64,000 bases of DNA from Nitrososphaerales archaeon (GTDB lineage: Archaea > Thermoproteota > Nitrososphaeria > Conexivisphaerales > UBA164), in NCBI GenBank assembly GCA_023256355.1, contig JAGDXJ010000053.1:11957-75956 (forward strand). Reading direction: 5' to 3'. The notes beneath the pieces were generated by a model. That model searched no databases, was not told the DNA's origin, and saw only the letters and a program-made list of their open reading frames with translations. A program made the position numbers and the translations under genes. Positions 3,867 through 53,660 of the stretch are shown here, piece after piece. Positions within the stretch are counted from its first letter, which is position 1. Each line of letters begins with the position of its first letter.

Positions 3867-4168
3867 GGGCGAGCGGCCGGGCGGGTTACGGGGGAGACCT
3901 GAGGAAGCTCCTCCCTTCGTCCACGGGGTTTGGCGCGGCGACGCGCGGCGAGAGATCGCCGGCTCTGGAACAGAAACGACACCCGTGCAGGCAGATGTCT
4001 TTGATGGCAACCAATGGTTGCCGGAGGACGCCTGGTTAAGGGATGAAACGGCCATCCCAAACGAAGAAAGGCCAAAACTGGTCTATGAAACACCCGTGGG
4101 TGAGACCTAGGTTGGCCGCATAGTCAAATCCCGCCTGAACAGAAGGAGGGCTACGAGCCGCACGTCCC
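3867..4168 (+). ncRNA. rnpB: RNase P RNA (archaeal type A-like, about 302 nt)
   Basis: A sharp GC-rich island in AT-rich DNA. The 5' cctgaggaagctcc resembles the P4 strand CUGAGGAAAGUCC. taagggatgaaacgg resembles the GGGUGAAA region. The 3' aacagaaggagggctac resembles ACAGAAnnnGGCUa (the other P4 strand). The 5' gggcgagcggc can pair with the 3' gccgcacgtccc as P1. Confidence 0.8.
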
Positions 4169-21134: not shown

Positions 21135-22097
21135 TTAATCTTTTTTCTGTCCTATAGAGCTCAGCTCTGCTAGTAACGCTGAAAGCTGTATATCAGGATG
21201 TGCACCCTGTATAAGCCTAAAGTCATATTCTGCAAATATTTTAGCTACACGAGCAAGATCAACGTCTTTCCTACCGTTAATGGCTGAAAACATCATCTTA
21301 AGTATATCAGTTTCAGGTAACCCATAGATCATTATTAGCTTATAAAGTATCTCCCGTGCTTTCTTAAAATCTCCGGAAATTGCAGCTTCTACCATGCTGC
21401 TAATATCGCTTTCTCTAGTTATAGTAATTGTTGCCCTTACGTTTTCTACGTTTACTTCGCCAAGGGCTGCCGCTTCCTGAAGGTGGTTTATTGCTTTTCT
21501 CATATCACCTTCACTTATCTGATATATTAACTTCAAAGCGTCAACGCTACACTTAACCTTTTCATTATTACAAATGAACTGTAGCCTTTTTATAACAGAT
21601 TCTTCATCAAGCCTCCTAAACCTAAATATGGCGCATCTGCTCTGTATGGGTTCTATTATATTGCTTGAAACGTTAGCTATTATTATGAATCTTGAATTAG
21701 CTGAAGATTCTTCCATGATTCTTCTTAAAGCTGTCTGGGCATCAGAAGTCATTTCATCGGCTTCATCAAGTATTATTATTCTGTATGGTATGCCTGCTGA
21801 TTTGTCTACAAACCTAGTAAAGTTCTTTATCGTCGTCCTTACAGTGTCTATCCCTCTTGTATCTGAAGCATTAAGCTCAAGAGTATAGTTTCTCCAGTTT
21901 TCTCCAAGTATCTCTCTCGCCAAACAGAAAGCAACCGTAGTTTTTCCTGTGCCTGGCGGTCCAGCAAACAAAAGGTGAGGCATATCTTCGGGCTTTTTTA
22001 GAAATCCTTTTAATCTCTCCACTATCTCTTCTTGGTCTTCGACTTCATCAAGCTTTTGAGGTCTGTATTTTTCAACCCACATTATTTCCTTTATCAT
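21135..22097 (-). CDS. rfcS: Replication factor C small subunit
   Basis: 320 aa with WVEKYRP, GPPGTGKTT, DEAD and SRC motifs. Confidence 0.9.
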   Translation of the reverse strand: MIKEIMWVEKYRPQKLDEVEDQEEIVERLKGFLKKPEDMPHLLFAGPPGTGKTTVAFCLAREILGENWRNYTLELNASDTRGIDTVRTTIKNFTRFVDKSAGIPYRIIILDEADEMTSDAQTALRRIMEESSANSRFIIIANVSSNIIEPIQSRCAIFRFRRLDEESVIKRLQFICNNEKVKCSVDALKLIYQISEGDMRKAINHLQEAAALGEVNVENVRATITITRESDISSMVEAAISGDFKKAREILYKLIMIYGLPETDILKMMFSAINGRKDVDLARVAKIFAEYDFRLIQGAHPDIQLSALLAELSSIGQKKD

Positions 22098-29929: not shown

Positions 29930-30157
29930 ATGGAAAGCGAGCTATCTTATGCACAAGTATACAGAATATTTAAAAAAAGTGGAGCTGAAAGGGTTAGCGA
30001 TGAAGCCGTAAGAGAACTTGCAAGATTTTTTCAAATTTATGGAGAAAAAATAGCAAAACAGGCTAATGAATTGGCGAATCATGCAGGAAGAAAAACGATT
30101 AAAGCATCAGATGTAAGACTTGCAATAAAAAATATAATAAATATCGACTTAGATTAG
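29930..30157 (+). CDS. Archaeal histone (histone-fold protein)
   Basis: 75 aa. RIFKKSGAERVSDEAVRELARFF...AGRKTIKASDVRLAIK matches the HMf-type histone fold. Confidence 0.85.
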   Translation: MESELSYAQVYRIFKKSGAERVSDEAVRELARFFQIYGEKIAKQANELANHAGRKTIKASDVRLAIKNIINIDLD

Positions 30158-30172
30158 CTAAAATAACAAAGT

Positions 30173-30229
30173 TTATGAAGACTGTTGCTGGCCTTCCTTC
30201 TTTTCTTCAGATTTCTTCTTCTTGGCCAT
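30173..30229 (-). CDS. Speculative 18-codon Lys/Glu-rich micro-ORF (MAKKKKSEEKKEGQQQSS)
   Basis: The ATG is preceded by the SD-like gaggtga with about 6 nt spacing. It sits inside an 8-bp inverted repeat (tgaagact/agtcttca). I recognise no homology. Confidence 0.15.
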   Translation of the reverse strand: MAKKKKSEEKKEGQQQSS

Positions 30230-30320: not shown

Positions 30321-31598
30321 TTAATTAACTGTTATCCATTCAGTGCTTTCTTTATCGAGGTTAAGAAATGCATAGCAACCACAATTTTTTATACTGGGTA
30401 CCCCAACGCTCCAAACCCCCTTGTAAATCAGGTCTATTCTTTCTTTTCCACCTCCTAAGAAAAAGTATTCCGGTACATCTTCAATAATTAACCTATCTGA
30501 AATAGATGGAACAGTTGGTATCGAGCCTACAGTAGGTGCAAGGTGCCTGGTCTTCAGAAGTTTTTTTACTGTATATTGTTCAGGCATCCCAGACGTTTTG
30601 AACATGTAGTACGCGTTATACAATAAAAAGTTTGATCCCTCAATGGTTAAATATGAAGGGTTGCTTAATAACCTGACATTCTGAGAAGAGTAAAGGTCTT
30701 TTGCAATCTTATAGCTAACAGGTTTTTGGGGTAATGCCTTCCCGGTAGAATCAGCATAGCCTGGGATTATAACTTTTAATATCCTTTTTGGCAATACTGA
30801 TAGCAACTCTGAAACCTTTTTATAGCCTTCAAGCGGTGATATGCCATTTTTTATATAAGCTAAAGAGTCAACTACATTCCCAAGGAAAAAGACACCGTCA
30901 GGCTTGATTGCTTTTAAAGAATCAAAGAAGTGTTCTACTTTGTTTGAACCGATCATAAGGTCACTTACCAGTGCTATCTTTCCTTTTATTTTTTTCCTTT
31001 TTACTTCTGGAAATTCAACATCTTCAAAATCTATCACGGAAAAATCTTCCGGGTTAATTTTTAGCGCCACGCATGATCCAGGTACGATTTCATCAAAAAT
31101 CCTTTTAGTAAAAACCTTTAATCTAAATACTCCTTTTCCATCATCAGCAAGTATTTCGTAATTATCGTTACTAATTTTTTGTACTATGAGGGCAAACCCC
31201 CAAGTTTCATCTTTACCTTTGCTTTTTATGTAATTTATATTAAAAAGGGGTATTTTGTTCGGTCTTTTTAGCCAAAGTTCTTTCATTTTTTTAAGCCTGT
31301 CGTTTAGCATTATGTTTAACTCTTCATATGTTGAAACTTGTATGCCATCTGAAAGAGATCTTTCAGTACTTATTATTAAATTTGTTTTGTCTATTTCAAG
31401 GTTTAGCCCAAAACTCTCTATATCTTTAAGAGTTATAGTGAAGTTGTTTGGTTCATATTCTTTTTTCTTTCTAATAGCTTCAATAACCCGTGGTATGAGT
31501 TCAGGTTGATCTTCCAAAACTTTAACTAGATCAGGATGAATCTGAAAACCTTCATTCAACGCCGTTATTATCAAATCTTTTATTTCAATCGATGACAT
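30321..31598 (-). CDS. DNA polymerase D small subunit (DP1)-like protein with degenerate phosphoesterase motifs
   Basis: 425 aa. It has a DP1-like N-terminal helical domain, a central OB-like region and a C-terminal calcineurin/Mre11-like domain that is collinear with DP1 (LLKTRHLAPTVGSIPTVP is conserved). The positions I recall as metal ligands read DLM, GN, GYAD, YN and GGGK where canonical DP1 has DxH, GD, GNHD, HG and GHxH. Confidence 0.7.
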   Translation of the reverse strand: MSSIEIKDLIITALNEGFQIHPDLVKVLEDQPELIPRVIEAIRKKKEYEPNNFTITLKDIESFGLNLEIDKTNLIISTERSLSDGIQVSTYEELNIMLNDRLKKMKELWLKRPNKIPLFNINYIKSKGKDETWGFALIVQKISNDNYEILADDGKGVFRLKVFTKRIFDEIVPGSCVALKINPEDFSVIDFEDVEFPEVKRKKIKGKIALVSDLMIGSNKVEHFFDSLKAIKPDGVFFLGNVVDSLAYIKNGISPLEGYKKVSELLSVLPKRILKVIIPGYADSTGKALPQKPVSYKIAKDLYSSQNVRLLSNPSYLTIEGSNFLLYNAYYMFKTSGMPEQYTVKKLLKTRHLAPTVGSIPTVPSISDRLIIEDVPEYFFLGGGKERIDLIYKGVWSVGVPSIKNCGCYAFLNLDKESTEWITVN

Positions 31599-31646
31599 AT
31601 GCCGTAGATATTAACGCTTAAATATTTTAATATTTAAGTTAAGGCA

Positions 31647-35986: not shown

Positions 35987-35994
35987 AGTGCTAA

Positions 35995-36069
35995 GGGCCG
36001 GTGGTGTAGCTTGGTCAGCACACCGCCTTGACGCGGCGGAGGTCGCCGGTTCGAATCCGGCCCGGCCCA
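35995..36069 (+). tRNA. tRNA-Val (anticodon GAC)
   Basis: gggccggtggtgtagcttggtcagcacaccgccttgacgcggcggaggtcgccggttcgaatccggcccggccca folds into a cloverleaf. The anticodon loop is ttgacgc (GAC). No CCA is encoded. Confidence 0.9.
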
Positions 36070-36071
36070 CT

Positions 36072-38030
36072 TTAATAATAGCGGAGAAAAACGATGCTGC
36101 AAAAAGAATAGCGTTTGCCCTTGATCGTTCTTATAAAAAGCTTTCCTTTGATGGAATCCCAGTTTATACAGGTTTATGGAATTCTATAAAGATTTATGTA
36201 ATACCAGCAAGGGGACATCTTTATACTTTAAAAACAGACGTCGGAGACCTGAGTCTATTTCCTGTCTTAGACGTTGAATGGGTTCCAGTAGCAGATGACA
36301 AGTACGTTACAAAACTTTTGGATGTAATAAAAAAGTTCATCAAAGAAGCATCAGAAATTATTATAGCGTGTGACTATGACATTGAAGGTGAAACCATAGG
36401 ATATAACATAGTAAAGTATAACGGAGGTTTTGAAAAGATCGTTAAAAGGGCTAAGTTTTCGACATTAACGGTAGAAGAGTTAAAGCAAAGCTTTAACAGT
36501 CTTTTGACGCGAGAAAAATGGCTTATGGCCGATGCAGGGAGAACAAGACACTATATTGATTTTATATGGGGTATAAGCCTTTCCCGCCTTTTAATGAATG
36601 AAGTAAGGCAGGGCACAGGTAAAAGATTAAGTCTGAGCATAGGCAGGGTACAGGGTCCTACTTTGATTGAAATTTATAACAGGGAATCAGAAATAAATTC
36701 ATATGTACCAAAACCATACTGGAAGTTTAAAGCCATAGGCGAACTTAGGGGTCAAGAATTTGAACTTTCAGGCCCAAGCTTAAAAAGCGTGGATGAAGTT
36801 GAAAGAGCAAAAAAATTAAAGGGAAAATATGGGAAAGTTGTATTTTTTGATAAAGATATCGAAGAAATCAAACCTCCTTACCCTTTTAATCTCTCAGACC
36901 TACAAAAAGAAGCGTACAGACTTTTTGGAATTCAACCTTGGGAATCGCTTTCAATTTTGGAGAAATTGTATCTAAGGGCTCTTATATCTTATCCTAGAAC
37001 GAGTTCTCAGAAATTGCCACCTACAATAAATTACAGATCTATACTTTCAAAACTCGGGCAAAGATATAAAGAAGCAGGAAACGTCTCAAGGCCTCATCCT
37101 GTAGAGGGACCAATAGATGACCCCGCGCATCCTGCAATATACCCAACAGGTGAACTGCAACCTTTGACAGGCAGCGAGTATAAGCTTTATGATCTTGTTG
37201 CAAGAAGATTCATAAGTTCTTTTTACAGGAACGTTAGAGTTGCAAAAAAGTACATGAAAGTCAAAGCAGATGGTTTTGACTTAGAAGCTGATGGAGCTGC
37301 CGTGATCGATAAGGGATGGCTGGAAGTTTATCCTTTCAGGGAAATAAGGGAGAAAAGCATACCGGATGCTGCTGTTGGTGAAGAAGTCCTGATAAAAGAT
37401 GTTAATGTAGAACTAACTTTTACTAAACCTCCTTCAAGGTACACCCCATCTAGTCTCCTAGAATGGATGGAGACTAACGAAATAGGTACAAAGGCTACAC
37501 GGGCTGACATTATAAAAACGCTCTACAAAAGAGGATACATAAGGGGCAACAGGATAGAAATAACAGAGTTAGGATTTAGCGTAGCTAGATACTTTAGTTT
37601 TTCTCAAATAATAACTCTCGAGATGACAAGAAAGCTTGAGAAATCTTTGGAGAACATTGAATTTGGAAAAACTTATCCCGGTGAGATACTTAACGAGAGC
37701 GCAAGGTTTCTAATAGAAGAATTAAAAAATGCTAAATACTCAGAAGAGATGGTGGAACTTACAAAAAAGTACTTAGCCGCTGGAACCGGCCAATCATTGG
37801 GAAAATGTCCAGTATGCGGCAAAGGAGATTTGGTACTGCATATATCGCAGGCAGGGAAGAGATATTTAAAATGCAATGTATGCGGAGCATCGGCTCCGCT
37901 TCCAAGAAAAGGAAAGCTCGTATCTGCAAAGAAAAGCTGTAGCTATTGCGGATGGCCATTAATAAAAAGAGGTGGTTGGGTGTTTTGTCCAAATCCGAAT
38001 TGCCCAAGCAGCAAGCTAAAAAATGCCTAG
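36072..38030 (+). CDS. topA: DNA topoisomerase type IA (Topo III-like) with C-terminal Zn ribbons; start codon unresolved
   Basis: The TOPRIM domain LIIAEKNDAAKRIA begins 3 nt after the tRNA. SIGRVQGPTL and ISYPRTSS (catalytic Tyr) are present, with C-terminal CPVCG...CNVCG, CSYCG...CPNPNC. The only in-frame ATG/GTG/TTG upstream of the TOPRIM Glu is GTG at 35988, before the tRNA. Confidence 0.8.
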   Translation, partial: LIIAEKNDAAKRIAFALDRSYKKLSFDGIPVYTGLWNSIKIYVIPARGHLYTLKTDVGDLSLFPVLDVEWVPVADDKYVTKLLDVIKKFIKEASEIIIACDYDIEGETIGYNIVKYNGGFEKIVKRAKFSTLTVEELKQSFNSLLTREKWLMADAGRTRHYIDFIWGISLSRLLMNEVRQGTGKRLSLSIGRVQGPTLIEIYNRESEINSYVPKPYWKFKAIGELRGQEFELSGPSLKSVDEVERAKKLKGKYGKVVFFDKDIEEIKPPYPFNLSDLQKEAYRLFGIQPWESLSILEKLYLRALISYPRTSSQKLPPTINYRSILSKLGQRYKEAGNVSRPHPVEGPIDDPAHPAIYPTGELQPLTGSEYKLYDLVARRFISSFYRNVRVAKKYMKVKADGFDLEADGAAVIDKGWLEVYPFREIREKSIPDAAVGEEVLIKDVNVELTFTKPPSRYTPSSLLEWMETNEIGTKATRADIIKTLYKRGYIRGNRIEITELGFSVARYFSFSQIITLEMTRKLEKSLENIEFGKTYPGEILNESARFLIEELKNAKYSEEMVELTKKYLAAGTGQSLGKCPVCGKGDLVLHISQAGKRYLKCNVCGASAPLPRKGKLVSAKKSCSYCGWPLIKRGGWVFCPNPNCPSSKLKNA

Positions 38031-49242: not shown

Positions 49243-49938
49243 TCAATAAAGGGCAAAAAACAACTTTCTCCAAACAAAAACATCAATGTGCAGCTGATCT
49301 ATTCCGGATTTTTTTGAAATCTCTCTCCAAACCTTAAGAGCACAGTCAACTTTCGTTTGCCCTTTTATAAGTTTCAAGCTTTTTGTAACTTTTAATACTC
49401 TGTTATCTAAGGGGATCGGTATTTGGTTTGGAATCTTAGCATGAATTCCTTCTGTTATTAACCCATAATGGAACATTTTACACGCGAAAGAAATTGTTTT
49501 CTGATATGAGGTTCCGTAAATTTTTAAAAGATCTTCATAGAGTTTTCCAAGATCTTTTTTATAGTTTTCTAGATTTAATGATAAAACATCCTCTCTATTT
49601 TTTAGAAGATAAAGCCTTTTTAATTTAGCATTCCTGGCAAGTTCTCTATTTTTAAGTATAAACTCCTCTATGCTTCTATATGGGTCTGAATGCTTTATTT
49701 CAAAAGTTGAAAGCGCATTCCAATATATTTCGCCACTGGTTTTAAGTCGATAAGCAACCACGCTTGCGGCAATTATAAAGTTATAAAAACATTTTTCATC
49801 GCATTTTAGCCTAATCTTTTTTAACGCTTCTAACTGAGGATCGTTCAGTTCAAGCTCATAATAATAATCGAGTTCTAATGACCTTAAAAAATAAGAAATT
49901 AAATTCACATTTTCGTTATCTATTTTACATTTTTCCAT
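49243..49938 (-). CDS. N-glycosylase/DNA lyase (AGOG, archaeal 8-oxoguanine glycosylase)
   Basis: 231 aa with SVVAYRLKTSGEIYW, KTISFACKMFHYG (Lys), IPIPLDNRVLKVT (Asp) and GIDQLHIDVFVW, which match the AGOG pattern as I recall it. Confidence 0.7.
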   Translation of the reverse strand: MEKCKIDNENVNLISYFLRSLELDYYYELELNDPQLEALKKIRLKCDEKCFYNFIIAASVVAYRLKTSGEIYWNALSTFEIKHSDPYRSIEEFILKNRELARNAKLKRLYLLKNREDVLSLNLENYKKDLGKLYEDLLKIYGTSYQKTISFACKMFHYGLITEGIHAKIPNQIPIPLDNRVLKVTKSLKLIKGQTKVDCALKVWREISKKSGIDQLHIDVFVWRKLFFALY

Positions 49939-51473: not shown

Positions 51474-51515
51474 CGATAGTATTAAAGCTTTAAGCTTAAA
51501 ACATTAAGCGTTACT

Positions 51516-53660
51516 ATGCTGTTTGAAGATGCGCTAAATATAAGAAAGAAAACAGACGTCGACCCTCAGGTCGATATTGAAATAAAGGACAAGTTTTATT
51601 CTATAAACGAACCGATATTTACCAAAAAAGACTTTATAAATTACGCTGAGCTCAGAGAATATCTACTTAAGCTAGTAAGCGAATCATACGGAGGTCATAA
51701 TTCCACTTATTATGATCCGCTTAAAGGTACAAAGATTAATTCAATTTTTTCAGATTATTTTGGGCAGTGGGAATCAGATTTTATTTATTTTGTTAAAGAC
51801 ATAAAGAATCCTAAAGTTGAGCCTCCTAAAGGTAACGGTTATATTGTTTTTGATATAACAAGCAGGTTCATAATCAGGTTTGTGGATGCTAAAGCACCAG
51901 TTGCTGTAGCAAGTAGCAAATTAGCCGACATTATGAATTTAAAATCGAACTCTTTGCCTGTTAAAATAGGCACATCATTTTACAGGCTATATTTTTCTGA
52001 AAACGTTAAAGCTCCCATTTTCTTTGACGGTAACACGGCTTCTTACGAACAAAAAGGGAAGGTTGTAAGTTTTGGCGAACTTCTACTTCCATTAAATTCA
52101 TGCTCTGATATTTTCGGACAGAGTTGCAAAAATAGCGTACAGAAATTTAACGAGGCTTTAGAAGAAGCAAGAACAACGGGATACTTAAGCCCATACTTTT
52201 CTTTTCCAAGATCGATTTTTAAAATTAAAATGCTTGATGAAGAAAGAATTGAACTAAGCGATACATCTATTCAGACATTAATAAATTCCTCCGTGCCTTT
52301 TGTCATTGAAAAAGAAAAAAACAGTATAAGGCTTATGGATGTTGAAGACGAAAGGACGAAAGCCATTTTGTACATAGCAAAAAGGGGCCTTGGAGGCATA
52401 AACGTATATGAACCTTACAGGGGAACTTTTAAGGTTTACATTAGAGTAGACAAAGATCTTCATGAACTTAGCAAATATGACGGAGTTCTTGCTTCTAAGA
52501 GTCTTGCAACTAACGCAACTAACTCGGGTTTAAGATTAAGGTTATGTGAAAATTGTAGCAGGACTACGCCTTTTAGAAAATGTGAAAGATGTGGATCAAA
52601 AACAGTTGAAATATATTATTGCAAAAGATGCGGTATATATACAAAAGAAAAAATTTGTCCCAAATGTGGCTCAAAAACATCAGAATCTTATATAACTGAT
52701 TTAAATTTGAATGAAAGCTTAAGTTACCTCGCTAGCAGGCTAAACATAACAGGCTTACGAAACCCAACGCTTCCTAAAAATTTATTTAACGAACCAGAAC
52801 TTCCAGATAAGCTTGTACTAAGGCAAAAAAATTCATTGTTAACAAGCAAATACGGAATTATATTGACGCCAATTAAGATGCAGGCCGGAAATATAAGCGG
52901 AAGCGAAATTGAAATGCCTGCTAAGTATGAACCTCTTATTAAGGAGATTAAATCTTTTATTTATGAAGAGTTAGTTAATGTCTACGGTAAAGAGACAGAT
53001 ATTGAGAATATAGGATCCAGTATAATTATTTTTAACAAACCCCTTAATGCCGGAATTGAGCTTAAGATAAAAGGTTACAGACAGGGTAACGAAGCTATAG
53101 TGAATCCTAACGTGCTAGAATTTGCAGGTCTAGGCGTCATTGATAACCAAGCATATTTTGCTTTAAGTGAAGATGCGGCATTAAACTGCGTATGTCCAAA
53201 GGGTAAAGGAATTATCATTTATAGGTCAGCTGAAAACGTCGATCTTTATCCTGTTAAATTAGATTATATGAGAACCCCAATATACCAGCAAAGCATAGCT
53301 GAAATAATAAAAGGCGCTATAAATTTACTTTCAAACACATATCCTGATGTCTTAAACGAAAGAGATTCAATTTCATTGATAAAGAAAGTTGAAGATATGT
53401 TTGTCAGGCAATCTTATATTTGCGAAAAGTGTGGCAAAAAGCTTAAGGTTCCTACGTTAAATATGCGATGTCCCGTATGCGGTTCAAAGTTAAGGCCAAG
53501 GTTTACCTCTTCTGATTTAAACAATTTTATTTTACAATTAAATGCTCTCACAGAGAACTTTCAGGCTTCTCCATACAAAGAGATAATCGAAATATATGTT
53601 AACAGTATAAAAAACATCTTTAGAACTTCGAGCCAGATGAGCATAGGAGATTTCTGGTAA
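51516..53660 (+). CDS. DNA polymerase D large subunit (DP2)-like protein, shortened and lacking the acidic catalytic motif
   Basis: 714 aa. Tandem Zn ribbons are at C344-C384 (CENC..CERCG..CKRCG..CPKCG). EPELPDKLVLRQKNS resembles DP2 EPLEKGLLRAKN. The C-terminal CEKCGKKLKVPTLNMRCPVCGSKL resembles DP2 CxKCNxKFRRPPLxGKCPxCGGK. The tail ends SIGDFW. There is no NCDGDED-like motif. Confidence 0.5.
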   Translation: MLFEDALNIRKKTDVDPQVDIEIKDKFYSINEPIFTKKDFINYAELREYLLKLVSESYGGHNSTYYDPLKGTKINSIFSDYFGQWESDFIYFVKDIKNPKVEPPKGNGYIVFDITSRFIIRFVDAKAPVAVASSKLADIMNLKSNSLPVKIGTSFYRLYFSENVKAPIFFDGNTASYEQKGKVVSFGELLLPLNSCSDIFGQSCKNSVQKFNEALEEARTTGYLSPYFSFPRSIFKIKMLDEERIELSDTSIQTLINSSVPFVIEKEKNSIRLMDVEDERTKAILYIAKRGLGGINVYEPYRGTFKVYIRVDKDLHELSKYDGVLASKSLATNATNSGLRLRLCENCSRTTPFRKCERCGSKTVEIYYCKRCGIYTKEKICPKCGSKTSESYITDLNLNESLSYLASRLNITGLRNPTLPKNLFNEPELPDKLVLRQKNSLLTSKYGIILTPIKMQAGNISGSEIEMPAKYEPLIKEIKSFIYEELVNVYGKETDIENIGSSIIIFNKPLNAGIELKIKGYRQGNEAIVNPNVLEFAGLGVIDNQAYFALSEDAALNCVCPKGKGIIIYRSAENVDLYPVKLDYMRTPIYQQSIAEIIKGAINLLSNTYPDVLNERDSISLIKKVEDMFVRQSYICEKCGKKLKVPTLNMRCPVCGSKLRPRFTSSDLNNFILQLNALTENFQASPYKEIIEIYVNSIKNIFRTSSQMSIGDFW

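Follow-up and report, generated by a model that had tools for sequence, protein, structure and literature searches.

Introduction

DNA polymerase D (PolD) serves as the main replicase in most archaea other than Crenarchaeota, and the inactive B-subunits found in all eukaryotic replicative polymerases descend from its small subunit, DP1. The present study concerns a 64-kb stretch of DNA from a Nitrososphaerales archaeon (contig JAGDXJ010000053.1 of assembly GCA_023256355.1; hereafter the window), in which an open reading frame (ORF) of 425 amino acids (aa) with an ATG start, at 30321..31598 (-), encodes a homologue of DP1 with a dead phosphodiesterase (PDE) site, and in which a second gene encodes a shortened, polymerase-dead homologue of the PolD large subunit, DP2. 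A free-living archaeal lineage that keeps both dead PolD subunits represents a natural experiment on the non-catalytic jobs of the enzyme that are indispensable, such as the bridging of helicase, primase and clamp. Such a pair may also show how the eukaryotic polymerase arrangement could have arisen, and provides concrete hypotheses for biochemistry.

Inactivated DP1 has been described by Kazlauskas et al. (2020, NAR 48:10142; PMC7544198) in a group designated Nitrososphaera_GB_GCA_002499005-like, which reportedly has no active DP2 and no family-B polymerase (PolB) bearing a C-terminal domain (CTD). This group was known from three genomes, for which the authors found it 'premature to draw any conclusion', and its placement near the eukaryotic B-subunits in their tree was attributed to high divergence. 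Their Supplementary Fig. S16 shows a DP2-like protein, NAY82641, whose accession stands 18 numbers after NAY82623, while Nitrosocaldus was reported without DP2 (PMC7544198). The same study lists the Aenigmarchaeota GCA_002789635-like group and Heimdallarchaeota B3/LC3 as having inactive DP1, no active DP2, or PolBs with C-terminal zinc (Zn)-binding motifs. In these groups DP1 activity is dispensable because PolB carries its own C-terminal Zn-binding domain (B6, B10), whereas reportedly none occurs in the Nitrososphaeria group. Besides this publication, a search of the accessible literature found no other discussion of inactive archaeal DP1 or of Conexivisphaera polymerases.

In the canonical enzyme, the Zn-III finger and the C-terminal helices of DP2 form the DP1-DP2 interface on the groove between the OB and PDE domains of DP1, an arrangement conserved in eukaryotic polymerases (PMC6355029). 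Binding of Gins51 to DP1, of DP1 to PriS, and of DP2 to PriL has been reported in Thermococcus kodakarensis, where the PCNA-interacting protein (PIP) box at the very C-terminal end of DP2 (cPIP) is indispensable for the binding of primase and binds PCNA too (PMC8096248).

Comparison with described systems

The DP1-like protein of the window is 92% identical to NAY82623.1 (P0080), a member of the nearest 90%-identity cluster, and 80% identical to a UBA160 protein (L012, contig DAXX01000018), both of which were named as members of the published group. The pair in the window matches that group in its inactivated motifs and in an accompanying DP2-like protein devoid of an active site, and nothing essential differs between them. 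Judged by sequence, the protein is a member of the published inactivated-DP1 group, and the finding of a dead pair was already known. An earlier note on this DNA, prepared from the sequence alone, had implied that the inactivation was new; this did not hold, the lineage and the 92%-identical protein having been published as inactivated DP1 with no active DP2 (PMC7544198). What is added here is incremental: the extension from three genomes to eight species, purifying selection on both genes, the finding that the PIP box and every Zn ligand are retained, and the existence of more DP2-like families lacking the catalytic DGDED motif.

With canonical DP1, as represented by the structures of Pyrococcus abyssi (5IHE/6HMF) and T. 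kodakarensis (6KNB), the protein shares its architecture, the RHLAP motif and a DP2 partner with Zn-III and C-terminal domain. Canonical DP1 keeps seven metal ligands, the catalytic His and a segment downstream of motif V, whereas the DP1-like protein has lost six of the seven ligands, the His and the segment. The likeness to eukaryotic B-subunits lies in a DP1-derived OB fold with an inactivated PDE domain, in an architectural role, predicted for the DP1-like protein, and in the PF04042 family; however, those subunits pair with a CTD-bearing PolB, whereas here a dead DP2 takes its place. Since the closest sequence relatives of the DP1-like protein are archaeal DP1s, its inactivation appears to be independent of that of the eukaryotic B-subunits.

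Identity and fold of the DP1-like protein

Profile searches identified the protein as a DP1 homologue far from the canonical members of the family. The NCBIfam DP1 model NF003118 matched residues 5-395 (model positions 4-437 of 481) with E=2.9e-31 and a score of 109 bits, far below the curated equivalog cutoff of 445, and the remaining NCBIfam DP1 models scored 49-82 bits against cutoffs of 425-993. The Pfam search of the protein returned PF04042 (DNA polymerase alpha/epsilon subunit B) alone (E=4.5e-12), with no match to Metallophos (PF00149). The best phmmer matches among PDB sequences were the DP1 of T. kodakarensis and P. abyssi (E ~1e-16), followed by human Pol delta p50.

The structure predicted by AlphaFold2 (AF2) from a 70-sequence alignment reached a predicted local distance difference test (pLDDT) score of 89 and a predicted template modelling (pTM) score of 0.79. 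When this model was compared with the PDB using Foldseek, the top match was P. abyssi DP1 (TM 0.71, E=4e-27), followed by human and yeast B-subunits (from Pol delta, epsilon, zeta and alpha), with TM values of 0.58-0.69 for delta p50, epsilon p59/Dpb2 and alpha p70. The protein is thus of the DP1/B-subunit fold and collinear with DP1, its N-terminal domain being followed by an OB fold and then by a calcineurin-like PDE domain; the layout given in the earlier note, and its comparison with eukaryotic B-subunits, were both borne out by these searches.

The N-terminal alpha/beta domain, delimited from the AF2 secondary structure (residues 1-62, 31413..31598 (-); block pLDDT 71-86), contains the strongly conserved ALNEGFQIHPDL, which forms an invariant block among orthologues. 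In the 15-sequence MAFFT alignment, its EGFQIHPDL part was also found in a more distant group of DP1 proteins (P0007-9), described below.

Loss of the PDE active site

The metal site was assessed by counting the seven canonical ligands (D, H, D, N, H, H, H) distributed over the motifs DxH, GD, GNHD, H and GHxH, using the phmmer/PDB alignment and the 15- and 70-sequence MAFFT alignments, with coordinates confirmed by translation. According to all three alignments, D213 is the sole surviving ligand; the other six have been replaced, and so has the catalytic His. In motif I, SDLMIGS (S212-D-L-M215-I-G-S, 30945..30965 (-); canonical SDLHIGS), the Asp is kept and the ligand His is replaced by Met215, while in motif II, GNVVD (G240-N241-V-V-D, 30867..30881 (-); canonical GDxVD), the bridging Asp has become Asn241. 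Motif III reads PGYAD (P279-G-Y281-A282-D, 30750..30764 (-); canonical PGNHD), with Tyr281 in place of Asn and Ala282 in place of the catalytic His; D283 is still present. Motif IV is reduced to Y327-N328-A329 (30612..30620 (-); canonical Y-H-G), with Asn328 in place of His, and motif V to GGGK (G382-G-G-K385, 30444..30455 (-); canonical GHxH), in which both His are gone. Downstream of motif V the protein is shorter, the canonical NSGxWQxQTxYQ...PxPG segment being absent.

The His of motif III (GNHD) is the proton donor, and its H451A replacement abolishes proofreading in P. abyssi, where it serves as the standard exonuclease-dead variant (PMC6355029); the position of H451 is occupied by Ala282 in the DP1-like protein. 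Among orthologues, the two replaced motif III positions differ freely (Y/H/P and A/T/F/L/E in the 15-sequence alignment), which argues that no chemistry is conserved there, and one orthologue (P0006) retains the motif IV His. These substitutions support the prediction that the protein is unable to hold two catalytic metals and, for that reason, is not an exonuclease.

Outside the five PDE motifs, RHLAP, a motif specific to the DP1/B-subunit family, is retained (residues 351-355, 30534..30548 (-)), and its R, H, A and P do not vary across the 70 aligned sequences. The earlier note had listed the substitutions DLM, GN, GYAD and GGGK, which agree with the alignments, and the preservation of an LLK.RHLAP..G..P segment, of which RHLAP is indeed kept. 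Its reading of motif IV was right as to the loss of His but placed the 'HG' motif at Y327-N328, when it actually corresponds to N328-A329, Y327 being the conserved Tyr that precedes it. Its prediction of an inactive scaffold gains support from the loss of six of seven ligands and the catalytic His in a gene under purifying selection.

Distribution and selection

Orthologues were searched for among 5.8 billion proteins and in GTDB genomes sampled at one per species, and the loci compared consisted of the 64-kb window and of flanks of up to 10 kb on either side of each orthologous gene. The close relatives of the DP1-like protein fall into six 90%-identity clusters, with 58-91% identity and lengths of 423-426 aa, beyond which identity drops to ≤30% with canonical DP1s. 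All members of the dead clade carry PF04042 without PF00149, whereas all the other 71 DP1 matches carry PF00149. The pattern of ligand loss is common to all six clusters, down to 58% identity, and the genome scan found the gene, with the same substitutions, in eight species-level metagenome-assembled genomes (MAGs) of Nitrososphaeria/Conexivisphaerales. Among the MAGs with the gene are JAWDMM01 (F8S.bin.2), WYER01 (EvPrim.Bin21), DAXX01 (UBA160), JAVBJD01, JBMFIC01 (KM4324-13) and JAGDXK01 (KMA_Bin21). Because six clusters and eight independent species-level genomes share the substitutions, sequencing or assembly errors, which the earlier note had named as a way in which its reading could fail, are excluded.

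The flanks of the gene are constant across loci, with an LLM-class oxidoreductase gene to one side and histone and GTPase genes to the other. The ratio of nonsynonymous to synonymous substitution rates (dN/dS), computed according to Nei-Gojobori between the window and locus L005, was 0.14 at dS=0.28; this is the only unsaturated pair, dN/dS being unusable for pairs with amino-acid identity ≤85%, where synonymous sites are saturated. Six genes neighbouring the DP1-like gene gave values of 0.03-0.12, and the DP1-like gene was faster than five of the six. With a dN/dS of 0.14, a constant length of 423-426 aa and a conserved gene order, the gene is under purifying selection and is not decaying.

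Nearest to the dead clade stands a group of DP1 proteins of 439-451 aa (P0007-P0009), at 25-29% identity. They keep motifs I, II, IV and V and have GEDD or GECD in place of GNHD, so that neither the ligand Asn nor the catalytic His remains. The gene of P0009 (locus L006, 3473-4813) is located near orc1/cdc6 and a radA-like gene. By its sequence, this group may represent a partly inactivated intermediate.

The DP2-like partner

The degenerate DP2-like gene that the earlier note had reported 20 kb away was confirmed at 51516..53660 (+). It encodes 714 aa, as compared with ~1138 aa in canonical DP2, so that about 40% of the length is gone; a canonical DP2 is recognised by the DGDED motif in the second double-psi beta-barrel (DPBB-2) and by a full two-barrel core, with about 1100-1300 aa. 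NCBIfam DP2 models and PDB DP2 chains matched residues 336-448, corresponding to the Zn-I/II region, and residues 628-713, from Zn-III to the C-terminus, while hhalign aligned residues 334-708 with residues 639-1137 of canonical DP2 at a probability of 99.4%. Residues 1-333 had no profile match in the hhalign comparison with canonical DP2. Vestiges in this region (RFxxRF/GFRLRYGR and FGEL..LP/FGDF..LVP) appeared in the MAFFT alignment only, and homology of residues 1-333 is not claimed.

What remains of the catalytic stretch of DPBB-2 is GLGVIDNQAYFALSEDAALN (53127..53186 (+); canonical RRxCDGDEDxVxLxxDxLLN), in which the acidic triad is lost. The canonical RRxCDGDEDxV has become GLGVIDNQAYF, with DGDED replaced by I/L-D-N-Q-A among orthologues, and DNQAY is invariant in orthologues down to 49% identity. 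In the Zn-binding modules, all 12 zinc-finger Cys are kept and invariant with canonical DP2. The Zn-I/Zn-II module (C344 to C384, 52545..52667 (+)) contains eight Cys arranged as four CxxC pairs, which are also invariant among orthologues, and lies in AF2 blocks (341-390) mostly at pLDDT 77-84, with one at 59. The Zn-III finger (C636, C639, C652 and C655) is encoded at 53421..53480 (+) and includes a docking loop reading K-L-K-V-P. At the C-terminus, the PIP box QMSIGDFW (residues 707-714, 53634..53657 (+); pattern Qxx[IL]xxF[WMV]) aligns with the canonical cPIP, Q707 and F713 being invariant with the canonical DP2 C-termini KQxxLAxF[MV].

This gene is also under purifying selection, with dN/dS values of 0.12 and 0.06 that are within the range of its neighbours; its gene order is conserved, and its orthologues have intact ORFs of 705-714 aa. 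The DP1-like and DP2-like genes co-occur in at least one other assembly, JAGDXK01 (L014 and L007), which is the most divergent.

Further DP2-like families, of 685-829 aa and one of 1060 aa, were detected in metagenomic sequences by an exhaustive HMM search. DGDED is missing from the DP2-like proteins P0119, P0120, P0123, P0124, P0130, P0132, P0136, P0157, P0161 and P0205, all of which keep the Zn-finger Cys and most of which end in a PIP-like sequence. Judging from these families, the catalytic motif of DP2 looks to have been lost recurrently.

Possible role of the dead pair

The DP1-like protein would be the small subunit of a PolD in which catalysis has been lost in both subunits and selection would preserve the interaction modules, namely the Zn-III finger and helical bundle of DP2, the Zn-I/II module, the N-terminal domain of DP1 and the PIP box. 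The Zn-III finger and C-terminal helical bundle of the DP2-like protein would dock into the OB/PDE groove of the DP1-like protein, as in PolD, and the resulting heterodimer would use DP1 to reach GINS/CMG and the PIP box to reach PCNA, would bridge these with primase (PriS and PriL), and would leave synthesis and proofreading to a family-B polymerase. On balance we consider it probable that a catalytically dead PolD heterodimer is kept as a non-catalytic hub of the replisome, because the retained modules are those that make these contacts in PolD, whereas neither catalytic centre survives. Such a role has parallels in the B-subunits of eukaryotes and in the half of Pol epsilon that is non-catalytic.

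Several observations weigh against this hub. The Zn-III docking loop of the DP2-like protein is weakened, with K-L-K-V-P in the window and L-R-L-S-L-P in the most distant orthologue against the canonical KxRRxP, and its AF2 model is poor, with a mean pLDDT of 45 and only the Zn-I/II and Zn-III/C-terminal regions at 72-84. At the largest distance, identity falls to 58% for the DP1-like and 49% for the DP2-like protein, as compared with 73-94% for housekeeping neighbours; both proteins evolve faster than most of their neighbours, which fits relaxed constraint. Moreover, ~20 kb separate the two genes, neither of which shares an operon with genes of replication.

Relaxed constraint and the disappearance of catalytic residues from both proteins would also be expected of functionless, pseudogene-like relics heading for deletion. 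This account is contradicted by the selection data: ORFs of 423-426 and 705-714 aa have stayed intact across eight species despite saturated synonymous sites, dN/dS is 0.06-0.14 and large invariant blocks persist, which makes it extremely improbable. Equally hard to credit is a nuclease and/or polymerase still active through a non-canonical active site. D213 and D283 do remain, and P0006 keeps the motif IV His, but six of the seven ligands have turned into Met/Leu, Asn, Tyr/His/Pro, Asn, Gly and Lys/Arg/Ser among orthologues, the variable replacements in motif III conserve no new chemistry there, and the DP2 acidic triad is gone. The window contains neither a canonical PolD nor a PolB. That the two genes are extra degenerating paralogues beside a canonical PolD elsewhere in the genome is very unlikely, since the group was stated to have no active DP2 and the related thermophilic Nitrosocaldus has no DP2 (Kazlauskas et al., PMC7544198), and since a dN/dS of 0.12-0.14 and a stable length over deep divergence oppose decay.

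A less probable reading than the hub is a B-subunit/CTD module acting in trans, in which the dead pair would bind a CTD-less PolB and tether it to PCNA, primase and CMG. Eukaryotic B-subunits being the next-best structural matches after DP1 would agree with it, as would the retention by the DP2-like protein of what eukaryotic catalytic subunits kept from DP2 (a Zn finger, C-terminal helices and a C-terminal hydrophobic motif), and the reported lack of a CTD-bearing PolB in the group (PMC7544198) implies that the coupling would be in trans. However, no PolB was found in the window or beside either of the two genes at any locus examined (flanks up to 10 kb), and the proposal would amount to a special case of the scaffold model. 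We regard it as unlikely that a free-standing 'B-subunit plus CTD' module recruiting a CTD-less PolB to CMG, primase and PCNA arose independently in thermophilic Nitrososphaeria; if it did, it would represent, in split-gene form, a living counterpart of the intermediate proposed to link archaeal PolD with eukaryotic replicative polymerases. A function outside bulk replication, with the pair neofunctionalised as a PCNA-bound repair or recombination adaptor or as an OB/Zn-finger DNA-binding factor, likewise seems doubtful. Purifying selection implies a function, yet nothing ties that function to replication, and PIP boxes, common among repair proteins, count in favour of this option. The gene for the AGOG 8-oxoguanine glycosylase lies one gene upstream of the DP2-like gene in a conserved order, but it is on the opposite strand with one gene between, hence no operon, and the retained modules are those that bind replisome parts in PolD.

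Upstream elements and neighbouring features

The 10-mer TTAAGCGTTA has exactly two copies in the 64 kb, at 31612-31621 (-) and 51504-51513 (+), situated 13 nt before the ATG of the DP1-like gene and 2 nt before that of the DP2-like gene. It was treated as promoter-like similarity rather than as a demonstrated regulatory element, as the spacing differs, the 10-mer overlaps a TATA-like sequence and orthologous loci conserve it only in part. The similarity could reflect either a shared promoter element or chance between AT-rich promoters. In both genes, TTTAAGC occurs ~26 nt before the ATG, and the upstream sequences suggest leaderless transcripts.

Between the stop codon of the DP1-like gene and the convergent archaeal histone gene (29930-30157 (+)) lies a lysine-rich micro-ORF of 18 aa, MAKKKKSEEKKEGQQQSS (30173-30229 (-)), which is unannotated at every locus and carries a TATA-like box of its own, AAAGCTAAAATATAAGAA, together with a Shine-Dalgarno-like sequence, ACGAGGTGAAGA. 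It is nearly unchanged, with synonymous changes, at loci where the DP1-like protein is only 58-85% identical, and a longer variant with a GTG start is present at L005 and L009.

Other features of the window include the RFC small subunit (21135-22097 (-)), the AGOG gene mentioned above (49243-49938 (-)) and the archaeal RNase P RNA (3869-4165 (+)); neither these nor the histone gene share an operon with the DP1-like or DP2-like gene. The ORF of a type IA topoisomerase (35988-38030 (+), 680 aa, GTG start) overlaps at its 5' end a tRNA-Val (35995-36070 (+)), and its true start is probably ~29 codons downstream, because orthologues are called at 651-653 aa.

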